Origin: an uncultured Verrucomicrobiae bacterium
GTDB lineage: Bacteria > Verrucomicrobiota > Verrucomicrobiia > Limisphaerales > Palsa-1400
Direction of reading: 5' to 3'
Assembly (NCBI GenBank): GCA_963702845.1
Contig: OY969763.1
Coordinates: 1,408,001-1,472,000, forward strand
Length of the DNA stretch: 64,000 nucleotides
The position numbers were made by a program, and so were the translations under genes. Below the pieces are notes generated by a model, which was not told where the DNA came from, searched no databases, and saw only the letters and a program-made list of their open reading frames with translations. Below are positions 1 through 64,000 of this stretch, piece by piece. Within the stretch, counting starts at the first letter, position 1, and each line of letters begins with the position of its first letter.

Positions 1-534
1 TCCAACGGATTCGAGCACCGCACGGACGGTTTTGCCGGCGATAATGCCAGTTCCAGGTGACGCGGGGCGCAAGAGGATCTTGGCGCCGCCGTAGCGAGCC
101 AGAATTTCGTGCGGGATGGTCGCGTCTTTGATCGAGACGGGCGTCATGTTGTTCTTAGCCATCTCGCCACCTTTGCGGATGGCTTCGGAAACTTCCATGG
201 CTTTGCCAAGACCGAGACCGACACGACCGCGCTTGTCACCAGCGACAACGAGGGCGCTGAAGCTAAAGCGGCGACCGCCTTTGACGACCTTGGCCGAGCG
301 GTTGATGAAGACAACCTTTTCGCTCAGTTCGGAACCGCCACCTTCACCGGAACCGCCTTCGCCGGGTGCGCCAGGGCCACCGGTGCCGGGACGTTGACGA
401 CGGGGTCCGCGATTGCCGCCAGGGCCACGATTGCCACCGCCGGGTCCACGACCACCACCACCACCAGGTCCACCGCGAAAGCCACCGCCACCGCCGCGAG
501 GGCCGCCTGTATTTGTATTTGGAGTTTCAGCCAC
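1..534 (-). CDS. rpsE: 30S ribosomal protein uS5 with Gly/Arg-rich N-terminal extension (3' end outside window)
   Basis: Manual translation from GTG at 534: [22 protein letters not shown]...[32 protein letters not shown]...[22 protein letters not shown]; follows rplR. Confidence 0.95.
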
Positions 535-557
535 AGTTTTTTCTCTCTTGTTACTGG

Positions 558-923
558 TTAAAATTTCAATCCGGCTTCGCGAGCGGCATCAGCCAATGCT
601 TTGACCTTGCCGTGATAAGGCGCACCGCTGCGGTCGAAGACCACGCTGGTGATACCTTTGCTCTTCGCTGCTTCAGCGGCGAAGGTGCCGATTTTTTTGG
701 CACTGGTAACGTTCGCGCCGAGCTTATCGCGATCGGGAGCGTTCTTTGCCGTGGTGCAGGCGGAAGCGACCGTCAAACGGCCTTCATCGTCAATGAACTG
801 CACGTAGATGTGCTCGTTCGTGAAACGAACGGCCATACGAGGGCGGTCTTTTGTGCCGGTAACTTTTTTGCGAATACGCCAGTGGCGCAGTTGCCGTAAT
901 TTCTGTTTTTTATCAGTTCTCAT
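558..923 (-). CDS. rplR: 50S ribosomal protein uL18
   Basis: [16 protein letters not shown] and [28 protein letters not shown] motifs; operon position. Confidence 0.97.
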
Positions 924-1012
924 TTTTTACGAGCCACGGATTTGGCCGTGTGCTGCTAAATTTTATATCAAAAATTGTTTCTAAATGTTGCGGCCAAGAT
1001 GGCCACACCTCA

Positions 1013-1549
1013 TTATTGAACAGTCTTGCCTTCCTTGCGGACGACATGCTCGTCGCTATAACGAACACCTTTGCCTTTGTAAGGTTCCGGCGGGTAGTAG
1101 CTGCGGAGTTCCGCGGCAACCTGGCCGACGAGCTGTTTATTCGGTCCTTCGATCGTCACCTTGGTGTTTTCTTCCACCTTCACCGTGATCTGGTCCGGTA
1201 TGGGATAATTGATCGGGTGCGAATAGCCAAGCACTAGGTTTACAACCTTGCCCTGGACAGCGGCTTTGAAACCGACGCCCTGGATTTCCAGCTTCTTGAC
1301 GAAACCTTCGCTGACGCCCTTGACCATGTTGTTCAAGATGGAGCGGCTGAGGCCGTGCAAAGCTTTGGCTTGGGCATCTTCGCCGTCGCGCGCAACAATA
1401 ATGTTGCCGTTGTCGACTTTGACGGAGGTGCGCTTGGGCAGATCGAAATCGAGCTTGCCTTTCGGACCTTCCACAAAAACTTTCTGGCCTTTGATTTCCA
1501 CCTTAACCTTAGGCGGGACTGCAACAGGCATTTTTCCGATACGTGACAT
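1013..1549 (-). CDS. rplF: 50S ribosomal protein uL6
   Basis: MSRIGKMPV...PEPYKGKGVRY. Confidence 0.98.
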   Translation of the reverse strand: MSRIGKMPVAVPPKVKVEIKGQKVFVEGPKGKLDFDLPKRTSVKVDNGNIIVARDGEDAQAKALHGLSRSILNNMVKGVSEGFVKKLEIQGVGFKAAVQGKVVNLVLGYSHPINYPIPDQITVKVEENTKVTIEGPNKQLVGQVAAELRSYYPPEPYKGKGVRYSDEHVVRKEGKTVQ

Positions 1550-1599
1550 AAAATCTTTTCAGTTACAGCGTCGTTACCTCGGCTGTTACAAAATAATGT

Positions 1600-1989
1600 T
1601 TACCAAACTACGCAAAGCATTTCTCCACCGACGTTCTTCTTCTTCGCCTCGGTACCGGTCATGATACCTTGTGAGGTCGAGAGGATGGTCGTGCCGAGAC
1701 CGCCGAGAACGCGAGGTACTTCGGTCGCACCGCTGTAGCGGCGCAGCCCAGGAGTGCTCACGCGCTTGATGCCTTCGATGACAGGAGTGCGGCCGGCATA
1801 CTTCAGCTTGAGCTTGAGCTTCTTGCTGGTCGGCTTACCGTCCACCGCCACCTCGGCGATATAACCTTCGCGCTTCAAAATATGGGCGATGCTCTCTTTG
1901 AGCTTCGAATGCGGCATTTCTGTCTCCGGCAACTGCGCGCGGCTGGCGTTGCGGATGCGCGTCAACATGTCTGAAATAGGATCCATCAT
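1600..1989 (-). CDS. rpsH: 30S ribosomal protein uS8
   Basis: MDPISDMLTRIRNA...ILSTSQGIMT...GGEMLCVVW. Confidence 0.98.
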   Translation of the reverse strand: MMDPISDMLTRIRNASRAQLPETEMPHSKLKESIAHILKREGYIAEVAVDGKPTSKKLKLKLKYAGRTPVIEGIKRVSTPGLRRYSGATEVPRVLGGLGTTILSTSQGIMTGTEAKKKNVGGEMLCVVW

Positions 1990-1991
1990 AA

Positions 1992-2261
1992 TTACCAACT
2001 TGCTTTAGTGACACCGGGGACGAGACCTTGCAACGCTGCTTCACGAAAAGTCATACGTGAGCAGCCGAACTTGCGCAGGTAACCGTGGCGGCGACCGGAC
2101 ATGGAACAACGATTGACGACGCGGGACGGACTGGCGTTGCGCGGCAGTTTGCTCAGCGCGGCATAGTCGCCCTTGGCTTTCAATTCGGCGCGAAGCGCGG
2201 CGTATTTCTTAACCGTCGCGGCTTTCTTTTTATTGCGTTCTATCCAAGATGTTTTTGCCAT
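1992..2261 (-). CDS. rpsN: 30S ribosomal protein uS14 (89-aa form without the CxxC zinc ribbon)
   Basis: [22 protein letters not shown]...PGVTKASW. Confidence 0.96.
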
Positions 2262-2270
2262 AAAAAATTA

Positions 2271-2816
2271 TTATTTTTCAGCGAACGGCATGCCCATCAT
2301 TTTCAACAGGTCGTGCGCTTCTTCGTTGCTCGTGGCGCTCGTTACGATGGTGATGTCCATCCCTTGCGTGCGCTTGATCTTGTCCAATTCGATTTCCGGG
2401 AAAATTGTCTGGTCATTGACGCCGAGCGAGTAATTGCCACGACCGTCGAACGAACGAGGCGAAACGCCACGGAAGTCACGAATACGGGGCAGGGCAGCGG
2501 CGACGAGGCGATCGAAAAATTCGTACATGACCTCTTTGCGCAGGGTGACATGGCAACCGATGGCCTGGCCTTCGCGCAATTTGAAGCTGGCGATGCTGTG
2601 GCGGGACTTGGCGATCACGGGCTTGCGGCCGGTGATGGCAGTCATGTCGCGCGCGGCGTCGTCGATTGCACCTTTTTCCAACGAGGCGCTCACGCCCATG
2701 TGGATCACGATTTTTTGGATCTTCGGGATCTGATGGACGTTCGTGTACTTCCGCTTCTCTTTAAGAGCGGGAGCAACTTCCTTCTGGTACTTTTCGTATA
2801 ATCTGGCTGTATTCAT
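2271..2816 (-). CDS. rplE: 50S ribosomal protein uL5
   Basis: ALPRIRDFRGVSPRSFDGRGNYSLG, GMDITIVT. Confidence 0.98.
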   Translation of the reverse strand: MNTARLYEKYQKEVAPALKEKRKYTNVHQIPKIQKIVIHMGVSASLEKGAIDDAARDMTAITGRKPVIAKSRHSIASFKLREGQAIGCHVTLRKEVMYEFFDRLVAAALPRIRDFRGVSPRSFDGRGNYSLGVNDQTIFPEIELDKIKRTQGMDITIVTSATSNEEAHDLLKMMGMPFAEK

Positions 2817-2856
2817 TCGCTTATTTCCGGATTTTGCCGGAGCGTTTTGTTAAAAT

Positions 2857-3123
2857 TTATTCTTTGTTAGCTTCAGCCTTACCGTGCTTGGCGTCGTGTT
2901 TGGAAGCGAGCACCACATTCGAGATGTGGATCGCAGCTTCACGCTCGATGATTGCGCCTTGCGGGTTGTTCTGATTCTTGCGCGTATGGCGTTTGACGAT
3001 TTTTACGCCTTCGACCAACACGCGGTCTTTTTTGGTGATGATTTCAAGGACTTTGCCGCGCTTGCCCAGTTCAGAACCGGCAATAACGACCACCTCATCA
3101 CCCTTTTTCACATGAAATGCCAT
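2857..3123 (-). CDS. rplX: 50S ribosomal protein uL24
   Basis: [14 protein letters not shown] motif; EAAIHISNV. Confidence 0.97.
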
Positions 3124-3125
3124 AA

Positions 3126-3492
3126 TTAAATAACCTCCGGCGCGAGCGAAATGATCTTCATGAACTTCATATCGCGCAGTTCGCGGGCGACCGGTCCGAA
3201 GATGCGGGTGCCGCGGGGATTCTTTTCCTTGTCGATGATAACAATCGCGTTGTTGTCGAAGCGCAGATACGAACCATCGGAACGGCGAATCTGCTTCCTC
3301 GTGCGCACGATAACTGCGTCAACGACATCGCCTTTTTTGACGGTGCCATCGGGAGCTGGCCTCTTTGATGTGCGCCTTGATGATGTCGCCGATGCCCGCA
3401 TATTTCTGGTTACGGCCAATGACGCCAATGGCCCAGGCGAGCTTCGCGCCGGTGTTATCGGCCACGTCTAAATTGGAACGAATTTGCAACAT
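3126..3492 (-). CDS. rplN: 50S ribosomal protein uL14 (one-base frameshift near 3355-3362, probable sequencing error)
   Basis: N-term [17 protein letters not shown] from ATG 3492; C-term [10 protein letters not shown]...[15 protein letters not shown]...SLAPEVI in another frame; span 367 nt = 3n+1. Confidence 0.95.
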
Positions 3493-3498
3493 AAAATC

Positions 3499-3834
3499 TT
3501 AAGCGTTAACTGGCGAAATCTGCTTGGCCTTTTCCAGGACCTGGGTTAAGCGCCAGCGCTTCAACTTCGAGAGCGGGCGGGTTTCGCGGATCAACACCAC
3601 GTCGCCAACCTGGGCTTCACGTTTTTCGTCGTGGGCGTAGAACTTTGAAAAAGCTTTGACGACTTTCTTGAATTTCGGATGCGCAAAACGGCGTTCAACA
3701 CTGACAACGATGGTCTTGTCCATTTTATTGGAAATGACCTTGCCGAGACGTTCCTTACGATGGCCGCGGTCTTCTGCGGTATCGAGTTGCGCTGCAGCCG
3801 TGCTGCCTACGTTTCCTTTTATTTCTTCGGGCAT
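3499..3834 (-). CDS. rpsQ: 30S ribosomal protein uS17
   Basis: KMDKTIVV...HDE...GDVVLIRETRPLSKLKRW. Confidence 0.97.
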   Translation of the reverse strand: MPEEIKGNVGSTAAAQLDTAEDRGHRKERLGKVISNKMDKTIVVSVERRFAHPKFKKVVKAFSKFYAHDEKREAQVGDVVLIRETRPLSKLKRWRLTQVLEKAKQISPVNA

Positions 3835-3844
3835 AGTTCCTCAG

Positions 3845-4054
3845 TTATTTCGTCTTTGCAGCGGCGGTTTTGCGCAGTTGAGTAGCGCGGGTTTCAAGGC
3901 GCGCGATATCGCGGCGCAAGTCGCGCAAACGGGCCGGCTTCTCGAGCTGGCTGCTGGCCTGTTGAAGGCGCAGATTAAATCGCTCCTGGCGAAGGTCGCG
4001 ACTTTTAGCGGTCAGCTCTTGCAATGTTAAATCTTTAATTTCGGTCATCTTCAT
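3845..4054 (-). CDS. rpmC: 50S ribosomal protein uL29
   Basis: ERFNLRLQ...LRRDIARLET; position between rplP and rpsQ. Confidence 0.95.
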   Translation of the reverse strand: MKMTEIKDLTLQELTAKSRDLRQERFNLRLQQASSQLEKPARLRDLRRDIARLETRATQLRKTAAAKTK

Positions 4055-4057
4055 ACC

Positions 4058-4477
4058 TTAGAGATCAGCGTGACGTGAAATGAATTTCGTCTTGATCGGG
4101 AGCTTGGTCGCGGCCAAACGCATGGATTCACGCGCGATCGCTTCCGGCACACCGTCCACTTCGAACAACACGTTCGCGGGACGGATGACAGCCACCCAGG
4201 ATTCAAGAGGGCCTTTGCCCTTACCCATACGGGTTTCCAACGGTTTCTTGGTAAAAGATTTTTGCGGGAAGATGCGGATCCAAACTTTGCCACGGCGCTT
4301 CATGTAGCGGGTGACAGCGACACGGGCGGCTTCGATTTGCTTGGTGTCGAGCCAGCAGCGTTCAAGGGCTTGCAGGCCGTATTCACCGAAAGCAACGGTG
4401 CCGCCGCGAATGGCGATGCCGGTCCGGCTGCCGCGGTGCATCTTGCGATATTTAACTCTGGCTGGTTGAAGTGGCAT
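4058..4477 (-). CDS. rplP: 50S ribosomal protein uL16
   Basis: QIEAARVA...[13 protein letters not shown]. Confidence 0.98.
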
Positions 4478-4495
4478 GGGTCAAAAATGTTAAAT

Positions 4496-5200
4496 TTATT
4501 GTGCAGCAACAGGCGCTGGGGCAGGGGCAGGAGCCGCTACCGGGGCCGTCATTGCTTCTTTTGGTTTCTGGTCAGGCTTGAACTCGCCTTTGCAAATCCA
4601 GCACTTGATGCCGAGTTTGCCATACATCGTGTGCGCTTCGGCAAAGCCGTAATCGATGTTCGCGCGCAAGGTGTGCAGCGGAACGCGGCCTTCATGATAT
4701 TTTTCGACACGCGCGATTTCAGCGCCGCCGAGACGGCCGCCGACGCGGATCTTGATGCCTTCAGCGCCGAAATCCATGGCGACTTGAACGGACTTTTTCA
4801 TGGCGCGACGGAAGGAAACACGGCGTTCCAATTGGAGCGCGACGTTTTCAGCAACGAGCTGAGCATCGATCTCAGGCTGCTTGATTTCCATGATGTCGAC
4901 GTAAACTTCTTTGCCGGTCATCTTGCTGAGATCTTCCTTGATCTTGTCGATTTCAGCGCCTTTGCGGCCGATGACGACACCCGGACGGGCAGTGTGAATG
5001 GTGATGCGGCAGCGCGAGGCAGCGCGTTCGATGCCGATGCGCGCAACGGAAGCGCCTTCGAGTTTGCTTTTGAGAATTTCGCGAATCTTGCGGTCTTCTG
5101 CGAGGAGCTTGCCGAATTCTTTCTTTTCAGCAAACCACTTCGAGCCCCAGTCTTTAGTGACGGCGATTCGTAAACCTACTGGATTAGTTTTCTGGCCCAT
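4496..5200 (-). CDS. rpsC: 30S ribosomal protein uS3
   Basis: [36 protein letters not shown]. Confidence 0.98.
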
Positions 5201-5202
5201 AA

Positions 5203-5556
5203 TTATTCGTCGGACAAAATGATTTTAACGTGGCAGTTGCGTTTAATGATCGGACCAGCGGAACCGCGGGCCTTGGGGGTAAAACGTTTCATGCTGGTCG
5301 CGGTGCCGGCAACGGCTTCTTTGACGCGCAGACGATCGGTCTTGAAATCGGCGTAATCCTTGTGGTTCGCCTTCAAGTCTTCGGCATTGGCCACGGCGGA
5401 ATGGAGCGTCTTGGCGACGATGCGCGCACCTTTGCGGGGCACCACGGCCAGGACTGCCTCCGCTTTGGAGGCGGGCAAACCGCGAATCTGACGCACGACT
5501 TCGCGCATTTTCTGCGCGGACATGCGAACGTTTTTTGTAATAGCCTGAACTTGCAT
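5203..5556 (-). CDS. rplV: 50S ribosomal protein uL22
   Basis: [17 protein letters not shown]...SAVANAE...PKARG. Confidence 0.95.
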
Positions 5557-5558
5557 AA

Positions 5559-5840
5559 CTATTTCGCTTCGGCTTTGGCGGTGTGTGCGCCGTGTTTCTT
5601 AAAGGTTCGGGTCAAGGAAAACTCACCCAGGCGGTGGCCAACCATGTTTTCAGTGACGAACACCGGGTTAAAGACTTTGCCGTTATGCACGTTGAAGGTC
5701 AGCCCCACGAAATCGGGGGTGATCATCGAACGGCGCGACCAGGTCTTGATCGGGGACTTCGATTTGGCAGCCTTTGCCTTGTCGATCTTATCCTGCAAAT
5801 GTTGGTCAATGAATGGACCTTTTTTAATTGAGCGTCCCAT
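5559..5840 (-). CDS. rpsS: 30S ribosomal protein uS19
   Basis: [27 protein letters not shown]. Confidence 0.98.
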
Positions 5841-5843
5841 AAA

Positions 5844-6698
5844 TTACTTTCTCTTCATTGGGCGACCATCACGGCGCACCAAAATAAAACGGTTAGAATA
5901 CTTGCGCTTGTTGCGAGTGCGATAGCCCTTCGCCAGCAAGCCCCAAGGTGAAGTCAATTGTTGCCAACCGCCACCTGATTTTGATTTACCTGCACCACCG
6001 CCGTTCGGGTGATCGACAGGGTTACGAGCAACACCACGGGTAATACCGCGAATGCCGCGATGACGGGAACGGCCCGCTTTACCAAGCGTGACGTTTTCGT
6101 GTTCGAGATTTCCAACCTGGCCAACCGTCGCATAGCAGCTTTCGTGAATGCGGCGAACTTCGCCTGAAGGAAGGCGAACCGTGGCATAACCTGCATCACG
6201 CGACATCAAAGTCGCTGCGCCACCGGCTGTGCGAACCATTTGAGCGCCACGGCCAGGGGTGATTTCGATGGCATGAATCGGGATACCGACAGGGATGTTC
6301 TTGAGAGGCAAGGCATTGCCGGTTTCAGGAGCCGCCGTAGGACCGCTCATCAGCTTTGTTCCGACGGTCAGACCGTTGGGAGCGATGATGTAGGTTTTTT
6401 CGCCGTCCTTATATTGAAGGAGAGCTAGGCGAGCGGTGCGAATCGGATCGTATTCGATTGCGAGAACATCAGCTTCAACACCATGTTTTTGGCGTTTGAA
6501 ATCGACGAGACGATAAAATTGTTTGTGTCCGCCGCCGATGCCGCGCGCAGTAACACGACCGTAAGCATTACGTCCGCCTGATTTTTTGCGGATTTCGATC
6601 AGGCTACGTTCTGGCCGATCCTTAGTGACCTCGTCAAACGACGCGACGGTAATATAGCGCGTCGAGGGCGTTAACGGTCTAAACGTTTTAACTGGCAT
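5844..6698 (-). CDS. rplB: 50S ribosomal protein uL2
   Basis: IEYDPIRTARLALL, GKAGRSR, RGVARNPVDHPNGGG; ATG at 6698 preferred over the upstream TTG. Confidence 0.98.
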   Translation of the reverse strand: MPVKTFRPLTPSTRYITVASFDEVTKDRPERSLIEIRKKSGGRNAYGRVTARGIGGGHKQFYRLVDFKRQKHGVEADVLAIEYDPIRTARLALLQYKDGEKTYIIAPNGLTVGTKLMSGPTAAPETGNALPLKNIPVGIPIHAIEITPGRGAQMVRTAGGAATLMSRDAGYATVRLPSGEVRRIHESCYATVGQVGNLEHENVTLGKAGRSRHRGIRGITRGVARNPVDHPNGGGAGKSKSGGGWQQLTSPWGLLAKGYRTRNKRKYSNRFILVRRDGRPMKRK

Positions 6699-6864
6699 AA
6701 AAATCAAAAAATACAAGTACAACCCACACGGGCTGCACAAATTACGCTTTTCAGCTTTTTAGCGCTTTAGCGGCTTCGGCCATTACTCCTGCGCCCAGAG
6801 GGGCGATCAGTTATCGGTCAAGCCAAGTGCTCTTACCTACCCTTCTATAGGGCGAGGAGCGCAG

Positions 6865-6892
6865 AACATACCAGAGGCAAGTAGGCGCGCAA
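6865..6892 (-). promoter_or_regulatory. Putative sigma70 promoter for the rplB-led operon
   Basis: Minus strand TTGCGC-N16-TATGTT with TG extended -10, ~165 nt upstream of the rplB ATG. Confidence 0.5.
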
Positions 6893-7091
6893 GGGTTTTT
6901 TGAAACTTTTTTTGTCTTAGTTGCCTGAGGAGTAGAAACCTCGCGATAAACTGTCATTCAGCCTTCGCTTCTTGATTCGCCCTTTTTGTATATGCGCACT
7001 ACGGTATTCACCTGTCGCAGAATCAAGGCAGCCGATCTGGAGAACTGCAAAGTTGTTGCCGTAACAGCTTTCTATTTTACAATCCACCGAT

Positions 7092-9497
7092 ATGTCACCG
7101 CAGAGGCTTGTGCCGCTTCTAGTATTCCTCTGCCTTTTCAGCGCAACTGCCGCCGACTACTCCGTCGCCTCTTTGTCAGCGGACTATGTAATTTGTGAAG
7201 GCCCACCCACCTTCATTGGGTCGCAAGGTGTGACAACGCTCCGCGTCGGCGCCAACAACAATAACGGCTCTGCAAGCGGCCGCAATGCGGTGATGATTTT
7301 TTCGATGCCTCTGCTCGCCGCAGGCGAACAAGTGTCGAGCGCATCGCTAGGTGTCAACGTTGCCGGGCGTTCGGGTTCGCCGAGTTTTAATGTAGACCTG
7401 TGGGGCATCGGTTTTCAGTCCAATACAACCGCCGTCGCAAAATATTTCGAGGCGAACACTGGTGATGTCGGGAATATCAAATTGCAAGACGATGTCATTA
7501 CCCCAGGTTTTTCCACTGGCGATGTGACCCTAACGAATCACGCCGGGTTGGCTGCGTATCTACAAAGTTTTTATGTGGCAAACTCGAACTACTCCGGCGG
7601 CTCTTATGTTTTTTTGCGGCTGAATCCTGACGCGGACTCGGGGGCCACCAGTCTTGGTTGGAGTATTTCCGCCGCCGAATCCGGCACTCCAGCCATTCTG
7701 ACGATTTCCACTGTGGGCGGGCCAACCAATGTGCCGCCGACGATCACCGTGCAACCTCAAGACCAACTGGTGATGCCGGCATCGAATGTTTCTTTTACGG
7801 TCGCCGCGACTGGACCTGGAACGCTGAGCTACCGCTGGAGTTTCAACGGGGCGCCAATGAGCGATGGCGGGCGAATTAGCGGTACGACGTTTCCGGCGCT
7901 TGATATCAATTCGGTGATGACGAACGACACAGGAAGTTATTCGGTCGTTGTGTCGAATGAGTTCGGCGCGGTCACCAGTTCGGTGGCCACACTGAAAGTC
8001 CTTGAGCCCACCACCAACAATTACACCAATATCATTGTCCTGATCAGCGACGATCAACGCTGGGATTCGGTTGGCGTCGTGCAGCGTGAAATGGGTGTTT
8101 CAGGCCGATTTCCATGGTTCACGAATGGCACGCCGAACATCGATCGAATCGCCACCGAAGGTCTGCGGTTCCGGAACGCGTTTGTGGGATGCTCGTTGTG
8201 CTCGCCGAGTCGCGCATCGATTTTGACCGGGAGTTACAATCACTTGAACGGGGTCATCAATAACAATACGGTATTTCCGACGAGCTCCGTTACGTATGCC
8301 ACCCAGCTCCAGGAGGCGGGCTATGTCACCGCCATGGTCGGAAAGTGGCACATGGGAAGCCAAACCGCGCGACCGGGATTTACATTTGCCGCCAGCTATG
8401 TCGGGCAGGGGAATTACAGCAACCAAACCTTTTTGGTGAACGGCGTTTCGACGCCGACGACAGGTTGGGTCGATGACGTTGCTACAGATTTCGCCCTCGG
8501 GTTTATCAGCACCAATATCAACAAACGTTTTGCCTTGCACCTCGGTTACAAGAGCACGCATGGCCCGAATGATTTTCCGTCCTGGTCCGGTAGTCTTTTC
8601 ACGAGTTCGGTGAGCCGTGATGTGCCGAACCTCGACGTGCCGCCTCCCTATCGGTCGAACGTTGTGGCAAACAGTGAGTCGGCCAAGCGCGACTATCACC
8701 GGTGCCTGACCGCGATGGACGTGGACGTTGGGCGCATCCTCGATTACCTCGACCAAACCGGCCTTGCGACAAACACCCTCATAATCTTCTTGGGTGACAA
8801 CGGCTATTATCTTGGTGAACACGGTTTGGGTGACAAACGCTCCTTCTATGACGAGAGCTGGCGGGTTCCATTGATTGTGCGTTACCCTCGTCTGATCACC
8901 CAACCGTTCGTGAGAAATGAACTGGTGATGAACATCGATATCGCGCCCACCATTCTCGACATCGCCGGCGTCGCTATCCCGCCCGATATGCAGGGCAAAA
9001 GTTGGCGGCCTTTGTTCAATGCCGGGTCCGTGCCCGATTGGCGGCAAAGCATCCTTGGCGAATACATTCTTGAGAACGGCTATACCATTCCAACCACCGT
9101 CGCCGTCCGGACGACGACCTCGAAAATGGTTCTTTGGCCCGGCAATCCATCTTGGGCGGAAATGTTCGATTTGGCGACCGACCCTTATGAAGTCACAAAT
9201 TTGTTCAACAATCCGGCGAAGGCAGCTATGCGCGACAGCTTGCACTCGGAGTTGAACCGACTCTCAACGCAATTCAGACTGTCGGTAACGTTGACGAATG
9301 CCGTGCGCGCAGCCGGCAATTTTCAACTCACATTGAGCGGCGGGATCGGGCCACGCTATCAACTCCAGAAAACCACCAACTTGCAATCCTGGACTTCAGT
9401 GACAGAGGTTAAAATGACCAGCGGCCAAATGACCGCAGCGGATACGAACGGAGCCGCCCCGAGCCAACTCTATCGCGCCGAATGGATCGGCGATTAG
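7092..9497 (+). CDS. Secreted multidomain formylglycine-dependent (S1) sulfatase: signal peptide, beta-rich N-domain, Ig domain, sulfatase domain, C-terminal domain
   Basis: SDDQR, CSPSRAS, GKWH and GDNGYYLGEHGLGDKR motifs; PTITVQPQ...LSYRW...GSYSVVVSN Ig repeat; hydrophobic N-terminus. Confidence 0.92.
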   Translation: MSPQRLVPLLVFLCLFSATAADYSVASLSADYVICEGPPTFIGSQGVTTLRVGANNNNGSASGRNAVMIFSMPLLAAGEQVSSASLGVNVAGRSGSPSFNVDLWGIGFQSNTTAVAKYFEANTGDVGNIKLQDDVITPGFSTGDVTLTNHAGLAAYLQSFYVANSNYSGGSYVFLRLNPDADSGATSLGWSISAAESGTPAILTISTVGGPTNVPPTITVQPQDQLVMPASNVSFTVAATGPGTLSYRWSFNGAPMSDGGRISGTTFPALDINSVMTNDTGSYSVVVSNEFGAVTSSVATLKVLEPTTNNYTNIIVLISDDQRWDSVGVVQREMGVSGRFPWFTNGTPNIDRIATEGLRFRNAFVGCSLCSPSRASILTGSYNHLNGVINNNTVFPTSSVTYATQLQEAGYVTAMVGKWHMGSQTARPGFTFAASYVGQGNYSNQTFLVNGVSTPTTGWVDDVATDFALGFISTNINKRFALHLGYKSTHGPNDFPSWSGSLFTSSVSRDVPNLDVPPPYRSNVVANSESAKRDYHRCLTAMDVDVGRILDYLDQTGLATNTLIIFLGDNGYYLGEHGLGDKRSFYDESWRVPLIVRYPRLITQPFVRNELVMNIDIAPTILDIAGVAIPPDMQGKSWRPLFNAGSVPDWRQSILGEYILENGYTIPTTVAVRTTTSKMVLWPGNPSWAEMFDLATDPYEVTNLFNNPAKAAMRDSLHSELNRLSTQFRLSVTLTNAVRAAGNFQLTLSGGIGPRYQLQKTTNLQSWTSVTEVKMTSGQMTAADTNGAAPSQLYRAEWIGD

Positions 9498-31985: not shown

Positions 31986-32059
31986 TGCCCGATGGTGTAA
32001 CGGTAGCACAGCAGACTCTGAATCTGCTTGTCATGGTTCAAATCCATGTCGGGCAGCCA
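31986..32059 (+). tRNA. tRNA-Gln (anticodon CTG) with encoded CCA
   Basis: Acceptor TGCCCGA/TCGGGCA-G-CCA, D arm TGGTGTAACGGTAGCAC, anticodon arm GCAGA-CTCTGAA-TCTGC, T arm CATGG-TTCAAAT-CCATG. Confidence 0.97.
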
Positions 32060-56897: not shown

Positions 56898-57305
56898 TTA
56901 GTGGCAGCCGCAGCCAGAGCCGCAGGAGCCGCCTTCAAAATCTTTTTCTTCCGGCAAACGGCCGAGTTCGAAAGTCTTGGTGAGATATTTATTTACGGAA
57001 TCCTGCATCTCGTGCATTTGCTGTTGGGCTTCCACGAAATTTTTCGCGACAGGATTACTGAAGAACTTCTCGCGTTGCTTCTCGAACGCTTCGACTTCCG
57101 TGTTTTCAAGCTGCACGCCTTGTTGTTGCTTATGCTGCAGGTATTGACCTTTTTCGCTGAGGTCCTGGTACATCTGCTGCGCTTCGGTGTTGATCATGAA
57201 TTTGTCCATGTTCGCGCGGATGGTCTGAAACTCGGGCTGTTTCAAAATCGTTTCGCAAAGTTCGCGCGTCTTCTGGATCAACGTTTCATTGGTCTGTGTA
57301 TGCAT
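56898..57305 (-). CDS. YlbF/YmcA (Com_YlbF) family protein with Cys-rich tail
   Basis: Helical Gln/Glu-rich body (ELCETI...NPVAKNFVEAQ) ending GGSCGSGCGCH; promoter TTGCCA-N17-GATACT at 57345-57317. Confidence 0.8.
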   Translation of the reverse strand: MHTQTNETLIQKTRELCETILKQPEFQTIRANMDKFMINTEAQQMYQDLSEKGQYLQHKQQQGVQLENTEVEAFEKQREKFFSNPVAKNFVEAQQQMHEMQDSVNKYLTKTFELGRLPEEKDFEGGSCGSGCGCH

Positions 57306-57522
57306 AAAGGTATATCAGTATCGGCGAGTGGCCGCTTTTTGGCAATCTGCCAGCAAGCCATGGCGGGAGCCAGTCGAATTATATAACGGAGCGGTATTCA
57401 GTGACTTGAAACCGTAAGGGGTCGCAACTCGCTCTCCTTACAAATGTGTAGGGCATTCCCCCTCAGGTAAAACCATGATTCACCTTGCAGACGCTTTTAC
57501 GACGCTGGTCTATTCTGGCGTC

Positions 57523-57571
57523 GCAGTAGAGTTAGTTTTCATAGGCGCCCCGGGTGGGGCGCCATTTTTTT
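57523..57571 (+). ncRNA. Candidate small RNA, copy 1 (~48 nt: single-stranded 5' segment plus terminator)
   Basis: TATTCT -10 at 57511; GCAGTAGAGTTAGTTTTCATA then GGCGCCCC-GGGT-GGGGCGCC and a T-run; 39/41 identical to copy 2. Confidence 0.65.
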
Positions 57572-57796
57572 GCCCGCGAAGAGTTTGCTTTGGCCTGTTC
57601 ATGTTCTGGTTTGCATTCCGACTTCTGTTTGTCAGTTTCGAACATCAGAACATCTCGGGCTTGCTTCTACAGTTCGGTCAGGAGCCTCCATTAACAGGTC
57701 GTAAGGCCTGACCCGAGGTTGTAGGGCCAAACCTTCCAACACAAACCTCAGTTCCCCTTGCAGACACAATTTCCGCTCTTACCTATGCTAGGCAGC

Positions 57797-57843
57797 GCAG
57801 TAGAGTTAGTATTCACAGGCGCCCCGGGTGGGGCGCTTTTTTT
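57797..57843 (+). ncRNA. Candidate small RNA, copy 2
   Basis: TATGCT -10 at 57784; GCAGTAGAGTTAGTATTCACA then GGCGCCCC-GGGT-GGGGCGCT and a T-run. Confidence 0.65.
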
Positions 57844-57963: not shown

Positions 57964-58923
57964 ATGAATCGTATTGCCTATTCCCTGCTTTGCGCGCTCG
58001 CATTCGCATCCACCGCATGTTTGGGCGGAGAACTGAATTTTTCACTCGCACCAAATTTCTTTGAACATGATCCCGATCACCAGCCGCTTGGCCCGTGCCA
58101 TGGTGGGGTGGTAATTGATAAGGCCGGGAACATGTATGTGACGACCGACACCGCGCGCGGCATCGTGGTGTTTACGCCGAAAGGTAAATTCCTGCGCGCC
58201 TTTGGTCCAAAAGGGCTTCACGGCCTGGAACTTCGGAAAGAAGGTGGCAAGGAATATATCTACGGGGCGCGCCCGGGGGACCATGAAGTCGTAAAGATCA
58301 ATCTAGCCGGCGAAACTCAATGGACGATCACTTGCCCGATGGAGTCAGGCATTTTTAAAGAAGCGAAAGATTTCCATCCGTGCGCGGTCACGGTCGGACC
58401 CGATGGCGCCATCTTCGTCGCCGATGGCTATGGATCGAACTACGTTCTGAAATTTGATAAAAACCGCAAATTCGTAAAGGCCTTCGGCGGTCCCGGAGAA
58501 GCGGAAGGAAAATTCAAAACGTGCCATGGAATTGCGCTGGACACGCGACTGAAAAAACCGCTCTTGCTCATTTGCAACCGCAACAACAATCGGGTCGAGT
58601 ATTGGGACCTTGACGGTAACTTCGTCAAAGTGATCCAAAAAGATCTCCGGATGCCAGCCGCCGTAAATATCCGTGGCAAGTACGCCGTGTTTCCCGAATT
58701 ACAGGGACGGGTCACCGTCCTCGACGAAAAAGGCAACATCGCCGCGCAAGTGGGAGACAATCCCAACGACAAACAGCGCGCCAATTTTGGGTTGCCGCCC
58801 GATCAATGGAAAGATGGGATCTGCAACTCGCCGCACGGAGCCTCGATCGACAAGGACGGAAATCTGATTGTTACGGAATGGAGCAAATTTGGCCGAGTGC
58901 AAAAATTCGTCCGGACAAAATAG
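57964..58923 (+). CDS. Secreted NHL-repeat six-bladed beta-propeller protein
   Basis: Signal peptide; FVADGYGSNYV, FKTCHGIALD, CNRNNNR, SPHGA. Confidence 0.85.
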   Translation: MNRIAYSLLCALAFASTACLGGELNFSLAPNFFEHDPDHQPLGPCHGGVVIDKAGNMYVTTDTARGIVVFTPKGKFLRAFGPKGLHGLELRKEGGKEYIYGARPGDHEVVKINLAGETQWTITCPMESGIFKEAKDFHPCAVTVGPDGAIFVADGYGSNYVLKFDKNRKFVKAFGGPGEAEGKFKTCHGIALDTRLKKPLLLICNRNNNRVEYWDLDGNFVKVIQKDLRMPAAVNIRGKYAVFPELQGRVTVLDEKGNIAAQVGDNPNDKQRANFGLPPDQWKDGICNSPHGASIDKDGNLIVTEWSKFGRVQKFVRTK

Positions 58924-61508: not shown

Positions 61509-61592
61509 ATGGAAAACCTCATTGTCGGCGGTGTCGCCCTCGCGCTGTTCATTTATTTGTTCGTGGCAATGGTGCGGCCGGAAAAATTCTAA
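61509..61592 (+). CDS. kdpF: K+-transporting ATPase subunit F
   Basis: MENLIVGGVALALFIYLFVAMVRPEKF* (YL..A...PEKF signature). Confidence 0.92.
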   Translation: MENLIVGGVALALFIYLFVAMVRPEKF

Positions 61593-61599
61593 GGACCTT

Positions 61600-63516
61600 A
61601 TGCAATCTTCAGGCTGGATTCAATTTGTCATCTTCATCGTTGCTCTGACGGCGATCACGAAACCGATGGGGCTTTATTTAATGCAGGTGCTCGATGCGAA
61701 GGGGCGGACGTGGTTCGACCCGGTGCTGCGGCCGTTGGAACGGTTGACGTATCGCGTCATGGGTGTGGATCCGAACAAGGAGCACGATTGGAAGCATTAC
61801 ACATGGGCAATGCTACTGTTTAGTCTGGTCGGCTGTTTGTTCACCTACGCGATTTTGCGACTGCAGCACCTGCTGCCATTGAACCCGCAGGGGTTTGGTG
61901 CGCTTTCGCCGGATTTGGCGTTTAACACGGCGGTCAGTTTTACGACGAACACGAATTGGCAGTCGTACTCCGGCGAATCCACCATGTCTTATTTGTCTCA
62001 GATGGTTGGGCTGGTATTCCACAATTTTACGTCTGCGGCGGTGGGCATCGCGATTGCGGCGGCGTTGGTGCGGGGGATTGCGCGGCATTCGATTAAGACG
62101 ATCGGGAATTTCTGGGTAGACCTGGTGCGCGTGACCTATTACCTGCTGCTGCCGATTTGCGTGGTGTTTGCGGTGGTGTTGGTGTCGCAAGGGATGATTC
62201 AGAATTTCAAGCCTTACACAAAAGCGAAGTTAACGGAGTCATTCACAATTCAAGTTCCGAAGACGGACGATAAAGGGCAGCCGGTGACGACGAATGTGGT
62301 GGTGATGGTGCAGACGCCCAAGTTGGACGCGCAGGGCAAGCCGGTTGTGGAAAATGGCGCGACGCTGATGGTGAATGTTCCGCAATTGGATGCGAAGGGA
62401 CAGCCGGTGATGACGAATATGCCGGTGATGGTGGACCAGAAGGTGGAGGAGCAAGTTATTCCGCAAGGGCCAATGGCGTCGCAGGTGGCGATCAAGATGT
62501 TGGGGACGAACGGCGGCGGTTATGCCAATGCGAATGCGGCGCATCCATTTGAAAATCCGACACCGCTTTCGAATTTTTTACAGATGTTGTCAATTTTTTC
62601 GATTGGCAGCGGGTTGACTTATTACCTGGGTCGAATGGTGAAGAATCAGCGGCACGGATGGACGGTTTGGGGCGTGATGATGGCGCTATTTATTGCGGGC
62701 GTGTTGTTGTGCTGGTGGGCTGAATCAGCGGGCAATCCGATTCACCAGCATCTAGGTGTGGCTGTGGCGGATGGGAATATGGAAGGTAAGGAAGTCCGCT
62801 TTGGAATCTTCAACTCTGCGCTGTTTGCCACAGTGACGACCGATGCTTCGTGCGGGGCAGTCAATTCGATGCACGATTCCTTCACTGCGCTCGGTGGGTT
62901 TGTGCCGCTATTCAATATCCAGCTCGGTGAAATTATTTTCGGCGGCGTTGGCGCGGGACTTTACGGCATGTTGGTGTTCGTCATTCTTGCCGTGTTCATT
63001 GCGGGGCTAATGGTTGGACGCACGCCGGAATATATCGGTAAAAAAATCGAATCGTATGAAGTTAAAATGGCGATGTTAGCTTTGCTGATTCTCGCCATCG
63101 ACATCCTTGTGTTCTCAGCCTGGGCATCGGTCAGTCAATCGGGTTTGGCTGGCCTGAACAACAATGGACCGCATGGGCTGAGCGAAATGCTTTATGCATT
63201 CAGCTCCGCCACTGGAAACAACGGCAGCGCGTTCGCCGGACTGACAGCCAACACACCGTGGTACAACACAACCCTGGGCATCGCCATGCTGATTGGCCGA
63301 TTCCTGATGATTGTTCCGATCATGGCGATTGCCGGGTCCCTGGCACGGAAGAAAGTCGCGCCCGCGAGCGCGGGGACATTTCCGGTTTCGGGTGGAACGT
63401 TTTTCATTTTGCTGACCGGCACGGTCATTCTGATTGGGGCCTTAAACTTTCTACCCGTGCTGACACTTGGCCCGGTCGTCGAACATTTCCTGACATTGCA
63501 GGGAAAACTCTTTTAA
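61600..63516 (+). CDS. kdpA: K+-transporting ATPase subunit A, with repeat insertion
   Basis: NTAVSFTTNTNWQSY, GTNGGG, GAVNSMHDS, NNGSAFAGL. Confidence 0.98.
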   Translation: MQSSGWIQFVIFIVALTAITKPMGLYLMQVLDAKGRTWFDPVLRPLERLTYRVMGVDPNKEHDWKHYTWAMLLFSLVGCLFTYAILRLQHLLPLNPQGFGALSPDLAFNTAVSFTTNTNWQSYSGESTMSYLSQMVGLVFHNFTSAAVGIAIAAALVRGIARHSIKTIGNFWVDLVRVTYYLLLPICVVFAVVLVSQGMIQNFKPYTKAKLTESFTIQVPKTDDKGQPVTTNVVVMVQTPKLDAQGKPVVENGATLMVNVPQLDAKGQPVMTNMPVMVDQKVEEQVIPQGPMASQVAIKMLGTNGGGYANANAAHPFENPTPLSNFLQMLSIFSIGSGLTYYLGRMVKNQRHGWTVWGVMMALFIAGVLLCWWAESAGNPIHQHLGVAVADGNMEGKEVRFGIFNSALFATVTTDASCGAVNSMHDSFTALGGFVPLFNIQLGEIIFGGVGAGLYGMLVFVILAVFIAGLMVGRTPEYIGKKIESYEVKMAMLALLILAIDILVFSAWASVSQSGLAGLNNNGPHGLSEMLYAFSSATGNNGSAFAGLTANTPWYNTTLGIAMLIGRFLMIVPIMAIAGSLARKKVAPASAGTFPVSGGTFFILLTGTVILIGALNFLPVLTLGPVVEHFLTLQGKLF

Positions 63517-63522
63517 TCGCGT

Positions 63523-64000
63523 ATGACACAAAAATCTGCATCACTTTTCGACTGGAAAATCGTCGGGCCGGCCATTGGCGATTCGTTTAAGAAGCTGAAT
63601 CCGAGGTTGATGATCAAGAACCCGGTGATGTTCGTGACCATGGTGGGCGCGGCACTGACAACGGCTGGCATTTTCACGACAGAAAAATCGCTGCGCGGGT
63701 TTGTCGTGCAATTGGCGATTTGGCTGTGGTTCACGGTGTTGTTTGCCAATTTCGCGGAAGCCGTCGCGGAAGGACGCGGGAAAGCCCAAGCGGCGAGTTT
63801 GAGAAAAGCCCGCAAGGAAACAATCGCGCGGCGGCTCCGCAACGGTCGTGAGGAACTGGTGCCCGCGCCTGATTTGCTGAAGGGCGATCAAGTAGTATGC
63901 GAAGCTGGCGACGTGATTCCGGCGGATGGCGACGTCGTGGAAGGCATCGCGAGCGTGGATGAAGCGGCGATTACAGGCGAGTCCGCGCCCGTGATTCGCG
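63523..64000 (+). CDS. kdpB: K+-transporting ATPase subunit B (3' end outside window)
   Basis: KLNPR..IKNPVMFV, WLWFTVLFANFAEAVAEGRGKAQA, VDEAAITGESAPVIR. Confidence 0.97.
   Translation, partial: MTQKSASLFDWKIVGPAIGDSFKKLNPRLMIKNPVMFVTMVGAALTTAGIFTTEKSLRGFVVQLAIWLWFTVLFANFAEAVAEGRGKAQAASLRKARKETIARRLRNGREELVPAPDLLKGDQVVCEAGDVIPADGDVVEGIASVDEAAITGESAPVIR

Follow-up and report, generated by a model that had tools for sequence, protein, structure and literature searches.

A tandem pair of predicted small-RNA genes of an undescribed family in Verrucomicrobiota, with a seed antisense to start and signal-peptide codons

The window analyzed here, a 64,000-nt stretch of the source genome G000 (6.03 Mb, 89.8% complete), contains two tandem plus-strand copies of a short unit that resembles a stand-alone small-RNA gene. 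Copy 1 opens with a palindromic box of 7-5-7 architecture (TGTRRGG-N5-CCYYACA; 57447..57465, centered at -67), followed by a putative third half-site CCTTGCA overlapping a predicted -35 hexamer CAGACG (57483..57493, the hexamer at 57488-57493), a 17-nt spacer, a predicted -10 hexamer TATTCT (57511..57516), a 20-nt single-stranded seed (57523..57542), and a predicted intrinsic terminator (57544..57571). Copy 2 follows the same plan, with a box scoring 19.0 bits and centered at -68 (57720..57738), a third half-site plus predicted -35 hexamer CAGACA (57756..57766, the hexamer at 57761-57766), a predicted -10 hexamer TATGCT (57784..57789), a seed with two changes (57797..57816), and a terminator hairpin with its U-run (57817..57843). 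The motifs named in the preliminary description of this locus—TGTAGGGC at 57447/57720, TTGCAG at 57485/57758, and TATTCT/TATGCT at 57511/57784—are all in place, and its figure of 39/41 identities for a 41-nt block common to both copies is exact. This similarity is far above chance (blastn E 4e-11). The two copies are the only ones in G000 found by blastn across the whole 6.03-Mb genome, and a whole-promoter matrix scan of the same genome revealed no third. The tandem arrangement occurs in G000 and in its congener G002, where copy 2 has the same variant seed; copy 2 appears to be a genus-level paralogue that has retained a seed of its own. Outside the unit, the locus is flanked by a divergent YlbF/YmcA-family gene on the minus strand (56898..57305), which is also a neighbor in L002 and L098 only, and by a plus-strand NHL-repeat gene (57964..58923) that is missing from this place in G002. 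Elsewhere in the window, a tRNA gene (31986-32056) is the sole Rfam match, and the ORFs at 61522-63999 resemble what we take to be kdpA and the start of kdpB. Contig C1 of G000 also carries a short intergenic repeat that occurs ten times between small genes (at 181074, 1602181, 1725406, 1728950, 1731246, 5448976, 4311581, 2851035, 2836487, and 2198118), possibly gene-cassette (attC-like) sites.

The first finding of this study is that both units are very probably genuine RNA genes, apparently two members of an undescribed small-RNA gene family. Each is predicted to yield a plus-strand RNA of ~49 nt, starting near 57523 (copy 1) or 57797 (copy 2), that ends in an 8-bp GC hairpin with a 4-nt loop followed by seven T, with z scores of -3.3 and -3.2, respectively. 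The 5' strand, previously described as unpaired, is indeed almost free of pairing in copy 1, where opening it costs 0.7 kcal/mol; in copy 2 the cost is 2.0 kcal/mol, the strand being folded in part through the intramolecular pairs that both substitutions add. In G002, the RNA is identical to that of G000 at 40/40 positions in both copies, while the promoter spacer matches at only 10/17 and 9/17, which bears out the earlier proposal that sequence between the motifs has diverged under selection on the RNA; purifying selection thus seems to act on the RNA letters. Seed conservation in relatives, which had been suggested as a check, is evident both in family genomes and in a metagenome scan that was blind to the seed, specifying only the -35 region and the exact hairpin. 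That scan returned 59 loci, 52 of them distinct, of which two were chance matches and 50 had a full promoter; in 48 of these 50 loci, which are related and hence non-independent, the 20-nt seed is exact, with a single change in one and a different strand in another (L310). The latter locus (L310:260-390), where the same promoter and hairpin accompany another 5' strand, may be a seed-swapped paralogue. In G012 there are four dispersed paralogues (L011, L141, L145, and L216) with different seed ends; L141 looks decayed and the stem of L216 is compensated. No Rfam family matched the window unit or five relatives at the gathering threshold (Rfam 15), in agreement with the preliminary description, which recognized no described family, the best score being 18.7 bits against a threshold of 40, and RyhB reaching 15.6 bits against 55 through its terminator only; at E values up to 10, the same six queries gave chance scores only.

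The distribution of the unit is that of a family-restricted gene with no fixed genomic context. DNA search found it in 19/24 family genomes and a covariance model in 26/31 (58–85 bits, 1–4 copies per genome); the model did not find it in G007, G015, G019, and G021, genomes that are 78–95% complete, and in G023 only a terminator-like match was seen. Outside the family, nothing scored above 31.6 bits with the covariance model in samples of 151 order and 151 phylum genomes, searches in which 38 of ~500–7600 candidates were scored per genome, so that distant homologues may be missed. The weak out-of-family matches, of which 25 loci were read, are mostly ordinary terminators after stop codons, and a DNA-search match in G032 is of this same type. 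At contig ends of G065, which belongs to another family, two identical short units (L161/L219/L220; L161 is cut by contig ends) consist of a -10-like hexamer and a terminator together with a 15-nt strand similar to the seed, and may be distant relatives. A scan of a genome collection with a 14-mer, a query so short that most matches are due to chance, identified the unit in three of 120 loci (L098, L114, and L122), all in Verrucomicrobiota records. Neighborhoods differ widely between genomes and no neighbor is constant, as would be expected for a trans-acting gene. These data also bear on whether the product might lie on the opposite strand, as a short ORF (MKTNSTA) or an antisense RNA or antitoxin, or whether the unit might be a mobile repeat. 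The minus strand does read ATG AAA ACT AAC TCT ACT GC, and conservation stops at the Ala wobble position. However, synonymous positions are invariant, the frame beyond is unconserved (10 codons in copy 1 and 22 in copy 2), one nucleotide is deleted in L216, paralogues alter the ATG, and the promoter and U-run point the other way. As for mobility, there are no plasmid or phage matches—two viral matches were rejected since both lie inside coding sequence—and the low copy number and varied neighbors are equally at odds with a mobile-element end. We therefore regard this alternative as highly improbable and treat the plus-strand RNA as the product.

The second finding concerns how these genes are likely to be controlled. 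The preliminary description took TTGCAG as the -35 element, which is misplaced: it lies 20 nt from the -10, and at 17-nt spacing the hexamer is CAGACG (57488) or CAGACA (57761). Since the -10 hexamer follows CAGACA by 16–18 nt in the parsed promoters, CAGACA rather than TTGCAG is the likely -35, and CCTTGCA instead resembles a third half-site for a regulator. A TAnnnT-type hexamer is found 6–7 nt upstream of the conserved G of the RNA in 32/32 parsed promoters, a C replacing the first T in one of them. Each copy is thus predicted to be under a sigma70-type promoter, an assignment made by conservation, the promoters of both copies having escaped a consensus promoter scan. The motif TGTAGGGC forms the left arm of a box missed earlier, a 19-bp palindrome whose center lies at -66 to -69 in 33/33 promoters. 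Above 14 bits, a matrix built for this box finds 22 sites in G000, 20 of them intergenic in a genome that is 16% intergenic; at 13 bits, 26/38 sites are intergenic, compared with 3–21 of 21–94 for 20 shuffled matrices. Strict boxes are present in G000, in 19/24 family genomes, and in 2/16 other genomes. By these measures, the palindrome appears to be a real, family-wide regulator site. Three family genomes (G007, G019, and G021) yielded neither the RNA nor a strict box, possibly reflecting joint loss with the regulator, and two others (G008 and G011) have the RNA and no strict box.

The genes downstream of this box provide hints about the signal. Among 40 strict sites that were fetched (L420-L459), five are upstream of hpnH, in five genomes, and others precede RfaH/UpxY-like, FHA, flgB, HU/IHF, and pilin-like genes. 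The box-defined regulon also includes sulfotransferase-like genes and the rpmB region, and box sites of the regulon on contig C1 of G000 are at 790262, 478138, 282054, 2925622, and 4386247. For four strict boxes, the gene driven by the same layout of box, half-site, -35, and -10 is a short membrane ORF (L428:1524-1872, L451:1504-1852, L430:1209-1557 on the minus strand, and L438:1540-1888). This conserved ORF of ~65 codons has two hydrophobic stretches and lies behind a receiver-domain gene in three cases; blastn did not find it in G000. Because of the nature of the regulon genes, an envelope or surface signal seems plausible. A NarL/LuxR-type activator is a lead rather than a result, suggested by the resemblance of the arms to the Gac-box and by the extra half-site, which recalls ComA promoters; G000 has 16 LuxR-type HTH matches. 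The PEP-CTERM/PrsR box was considered and rejected: only ten proteins match a loose PEP-CTERM pattern, and that box is, according to the paper describing it, confined to Proteobacteria with sigma-54.

The third finding is that the seed is bipartite, its 3' half being exactly complementary to ATGAAAAC, the 8-mer with which genes of G000 most commonly begin. Genes were called by a crude self-trained script (4865 genes, 4357 used), and SD-like tetramers precede only 466/4357 of the starts, compared with counts of 250 and 201 for control windows, which agrees with the earlier remark that many starts here lack an SD. Some Verrucomicrobia are classed as SD-scarce in the accessible part of a published survey (PMC10783764). 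ATGAAAAC begins 100/4357 genes, a match equaled by 164/200000 seed shuffles; it also ranks first in two start sets chosen without a start model and only 112th at internal ATGs. Consistent with the proposed pairing over the start codon, 14 of the 100 best genome-wide duplexes fall at starts, compared with 1–5 for five shuffled seeds. The variant seed of copy 2, antisense to GTG AAT ACT where copy 1 is antisense to ATG AAA ACT, is shifted toward Met-Asn-Thr starts (19 genes, rank 21), and it has 28 of its 50 best predicted targets in common with copy 1. In a few cases, paralogues differ at the base opposite the start codon's first letter, this base being also simply the last of the strand. The enrichment of ACT at codon 3 after ATG AAA (30/100 vs 66/378, p 0.007) is not counted as support because codons 4–7 of the same genes give 43/173. 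Together, these predictions support the earlier reading of a trans-acting sRNA that would pair over start codons.

The other half of the seed, which the preliminary description had overlooked together with the export bias that follows, is a 5' heptamer antisense to Leu-Leu codons. Its site occurs in 13.7% of signal-peptide-like starts and in 4.2% of others, it ranks 165/16384 for enrichment in signal-peptide-coding starts, and 16 of the 50 best predicted targets place an in-frame Leu-Leu opposite it; the seed variants L217 and L209 retain Leu-Leu in the antisense frame. Of the 25 and 50 best predicted targets, 20 and 34 are signal-peptide-like against a baseline of 29%, as called by a crude rule of our own that N-terminal membrane anchors also pass and with duplex energies that ignore mRNA structure. 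Shuffled seeds (39) give means of 6.3 and 13.3, with maxima of 11 and 22, and internal windows give 5/25. Copy 2 behaves similarly (32/50 vs 12.6; 0/44 shuffles as high). The top ten targets are three sulfatases, a DUF6923 protein, a methyltransferase, a ceramidase-like protein, and four large proteins with Ig, lectin, FG-GAP, RCC1, or carboxypeptidase-regulatory domains. The bias was replicated on 400-kb samples of three other genera (G012, G016, and G014), in which the top 20 targets include seven, five, and ten that are both start-covering and signal-peptide-like against ~1.4 expected, with 0/60, 1/60, and 0/60 shuffles as high; in G016, the signal-peptide count of the top 20 taken alone is not enriched (5; 17/60 shuffles as high). 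G037, a genome in which no copy of the RNA was found, shows the same bias (6 vs 1.6; 0/60 shuffles), which implies that what the seed fits is signal-peptide starts in general rather than co-evolved ones. When only the 5' half is shuffled, mean energy is unchanged (124/470 as good) and the gain is restricted to strong duplexes (12 vs 5.2; 14/470 as good).

These target predictions must be weighed against the alternative that the sRNA base-pairs with a single key target or a handful of them, at starts or elsewhere. The match to a class would then be a by-product, e.g., of descent from an antisense copy of the start of a signal-peptide gene. Such an RNA would account for the invariance of all 20 seed positions, the middle included, which exceeds the needs of loose multi-target pairing, and for the location of most of the 100 best genome-wide duplexes away from starts. 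It would also fit the lack of visible adaptation on the target side, since the ACT share of YATGAAAACN is similar across RNA-bearing family genomes (600/3401, 17.6%, the opposite strand of the RNA gene itself included), family genomes without the RNA (99/669, 14.8%), and other families (310/1875, 16.5%). Exact two-part sites number 0–4 per genome and are present in other families too. However, no dominant target emerges: G000 has no exact complement longer than 13 nt outside the RNA genes themselves, and one of the two best targets, the only one followed, has full-length orthologues in just 2/30 family genomes, with weaker pairing at the one ortholog start that was scored (-17.2 vs -25.0). We consider a few-target RNA unlikely, and a class-wide one the better account.

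A further alternative is a protein-binding RNA, either a sponge or a guide with a fixed hairpin handle, akin to the Rsm RNAs driven by the Gac-box. The stem is near-invariant, with no double change across 24 alignment rows, and pairing gives no explanation for this. The box is one spacer base off the Gac-box (TGTAAG-N6-CTTACA), L310 retains promoter and hairpin with another 5' strand, and neither Hfq (PF17209) nor ProQ was found in G000, all of which would suit a protein partner. Nevertheless, CsrA was likewise not found in this 89.8% complete genome and the RNA has no GGA motif, so that membership of the Csr/Rsm sponges finds no support. Moreover, L216 combines a changed stem (11 bp, with two double-sided changes) with a near-identical seed, and complementarity to starts and signal peptides is not something that protein binding predicts. 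This makes a protein-binding role somewhat less likely still than a few-target one.

Our preferred reading, to which we assign a probability of roughly 0.55, is that a regulated, chaperone-free, RybB-like antisense RNA masks the AUG and early codons of many mRNAs for exported proteins and reduces translation from them. Each stand-alone gene would be switched on by a transcription factor occupying the upstream palindrome, and the invariant 5' strand would then pair over the start and first codons of these mRNAs, blocking translation and acting as a shared brake on exported proteins. Specifically, the 3' half of the seed would pair with AUG AAA AC(U), i.e., Met-Lys-Thr, the commonest start in G000, and the GC-richer 5' half would reach a few codons further, most frequently to Leu-Leu in the hydrophobic core of the signal peptide, the mRNA being looped out between the two paired stretches. 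To our knowledge, signal peptides are the sole sequence feature common to unrelated exported proteins, and one seed could therefore reach the whole class. In an SD-scarce genome in which Hfq, ProQ, and CsrA were not found, the start region would be the available target, and the long seed may stand in for a chaperone. What the data show directly is the sequence, its conservation, how promoter and terminator are laid out, and the statistics for the box and for complementarity; transcription, activation, in-cell pairing, repression, and a trigger linked to envelope remodeling are all things that we infer. A bolder version, to which we would give slightly worse than even odds, is that the RNA is an antisense reader of a signal-peptide code (Met-Lys-Thr, then Leu-Leu) that needs neither Hfq nor ProQ to hold down much of the secretome and that extends, at the post-transcriptional level, the reach of a regulator of hopanoid and surface-polysaccharide genes. 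If the preferred reading holds, an SD-poor, chaperone-lacking bacterium would regulate a functional class of mRNAs via the codons that signal peptides have in common, and the unit would offer a minimal 49-nt scaffold for chaperone-free silencing. The regulator site, with its conserved regulon (hpnH, RfaH-like), is a lead that can be followed. In the literature we found neither this RNA nor any sRNA reported to hit signal-peptide codons as a class, although motif catalogues in supplements or behind subscription could contain one, and no regulatory RNA for this bacterial group in Rfam or in the literature found.

Comparison with known systems, for which the sources cited were accessible in part, highlights important similarities and differences. 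The RNA shares with RybB/MicV/VrrA/MicA a conserved 5' seed followed by a terminator, paralogues with a common seed, and targets enriched for envelope proteins, in our case by prediction (PMC6694218); RybB itself binds ompD inside its first five codons (PMC4911921). The RybB type, as described in those accounts, has a sigmaE promoter, Hfq dependence, and porin targets, whereas here the promoter is of predicted sigma70 type with a box, Hfq was not found, and the predicted targets are sulfatases and large surface proteins. Furthermore, the seed here is longer (20 nt), bipartite, and includes an anti-AUG, and the CRCUGCUUUU seed given for the RybB type (PMC6694218) is absent from the RNA. The palindromic box, with its TGTAAG/CTTACA-like arms upstream of an sRNA, parallels the Gac-box of RsmXYZ in the accessible description, although the spacer is 6 nt there and 7 nt here by the same arms (PMC11837529). 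The extra half-site near the -35 is reminiscent of ComA promoters (PMC4797271), except that it is oriented as a right arm, unlike in the ComA tripartite promoters as there presented. Closer in mode of action is IhtA from Chlamydia, in the same PVC superphylum, which like our model is Hfq-independent and occludes the AUG rather than the SD; its three stem-loops, with a 7-nt G/C clamp located in a loop, and its two targets shown in the accessible text (PMC4355289) contrast with the single hairpin and open AU-rich 20-nt strand of the RNA described here, which has no Rfam match. IhtA requires its G/C clamps according to the same account (PMC4355289), and the AU-rich helix on the AUG side of our seed counts against start-codon occlusion. 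GibS from Bacteroides thetaiotaomicron acts in an SD-lacking host without Hfq or ProQ through an unstructured, conserved, extended 5' seed at start codons, but that seed spans 30–50 nt on few metabolic mRNAs, the accessible part of its description mentions no targeting of signal peptides as a class (PMC7366714), and in Rfam it has no sequence match to our RNA. The RNA thus belongs to none of the RybB/MicV/VrrA, IhtA, or GibS groups, and IhtA and GibS are, by analogy, precedents for start-codon occlusion without Hfq.
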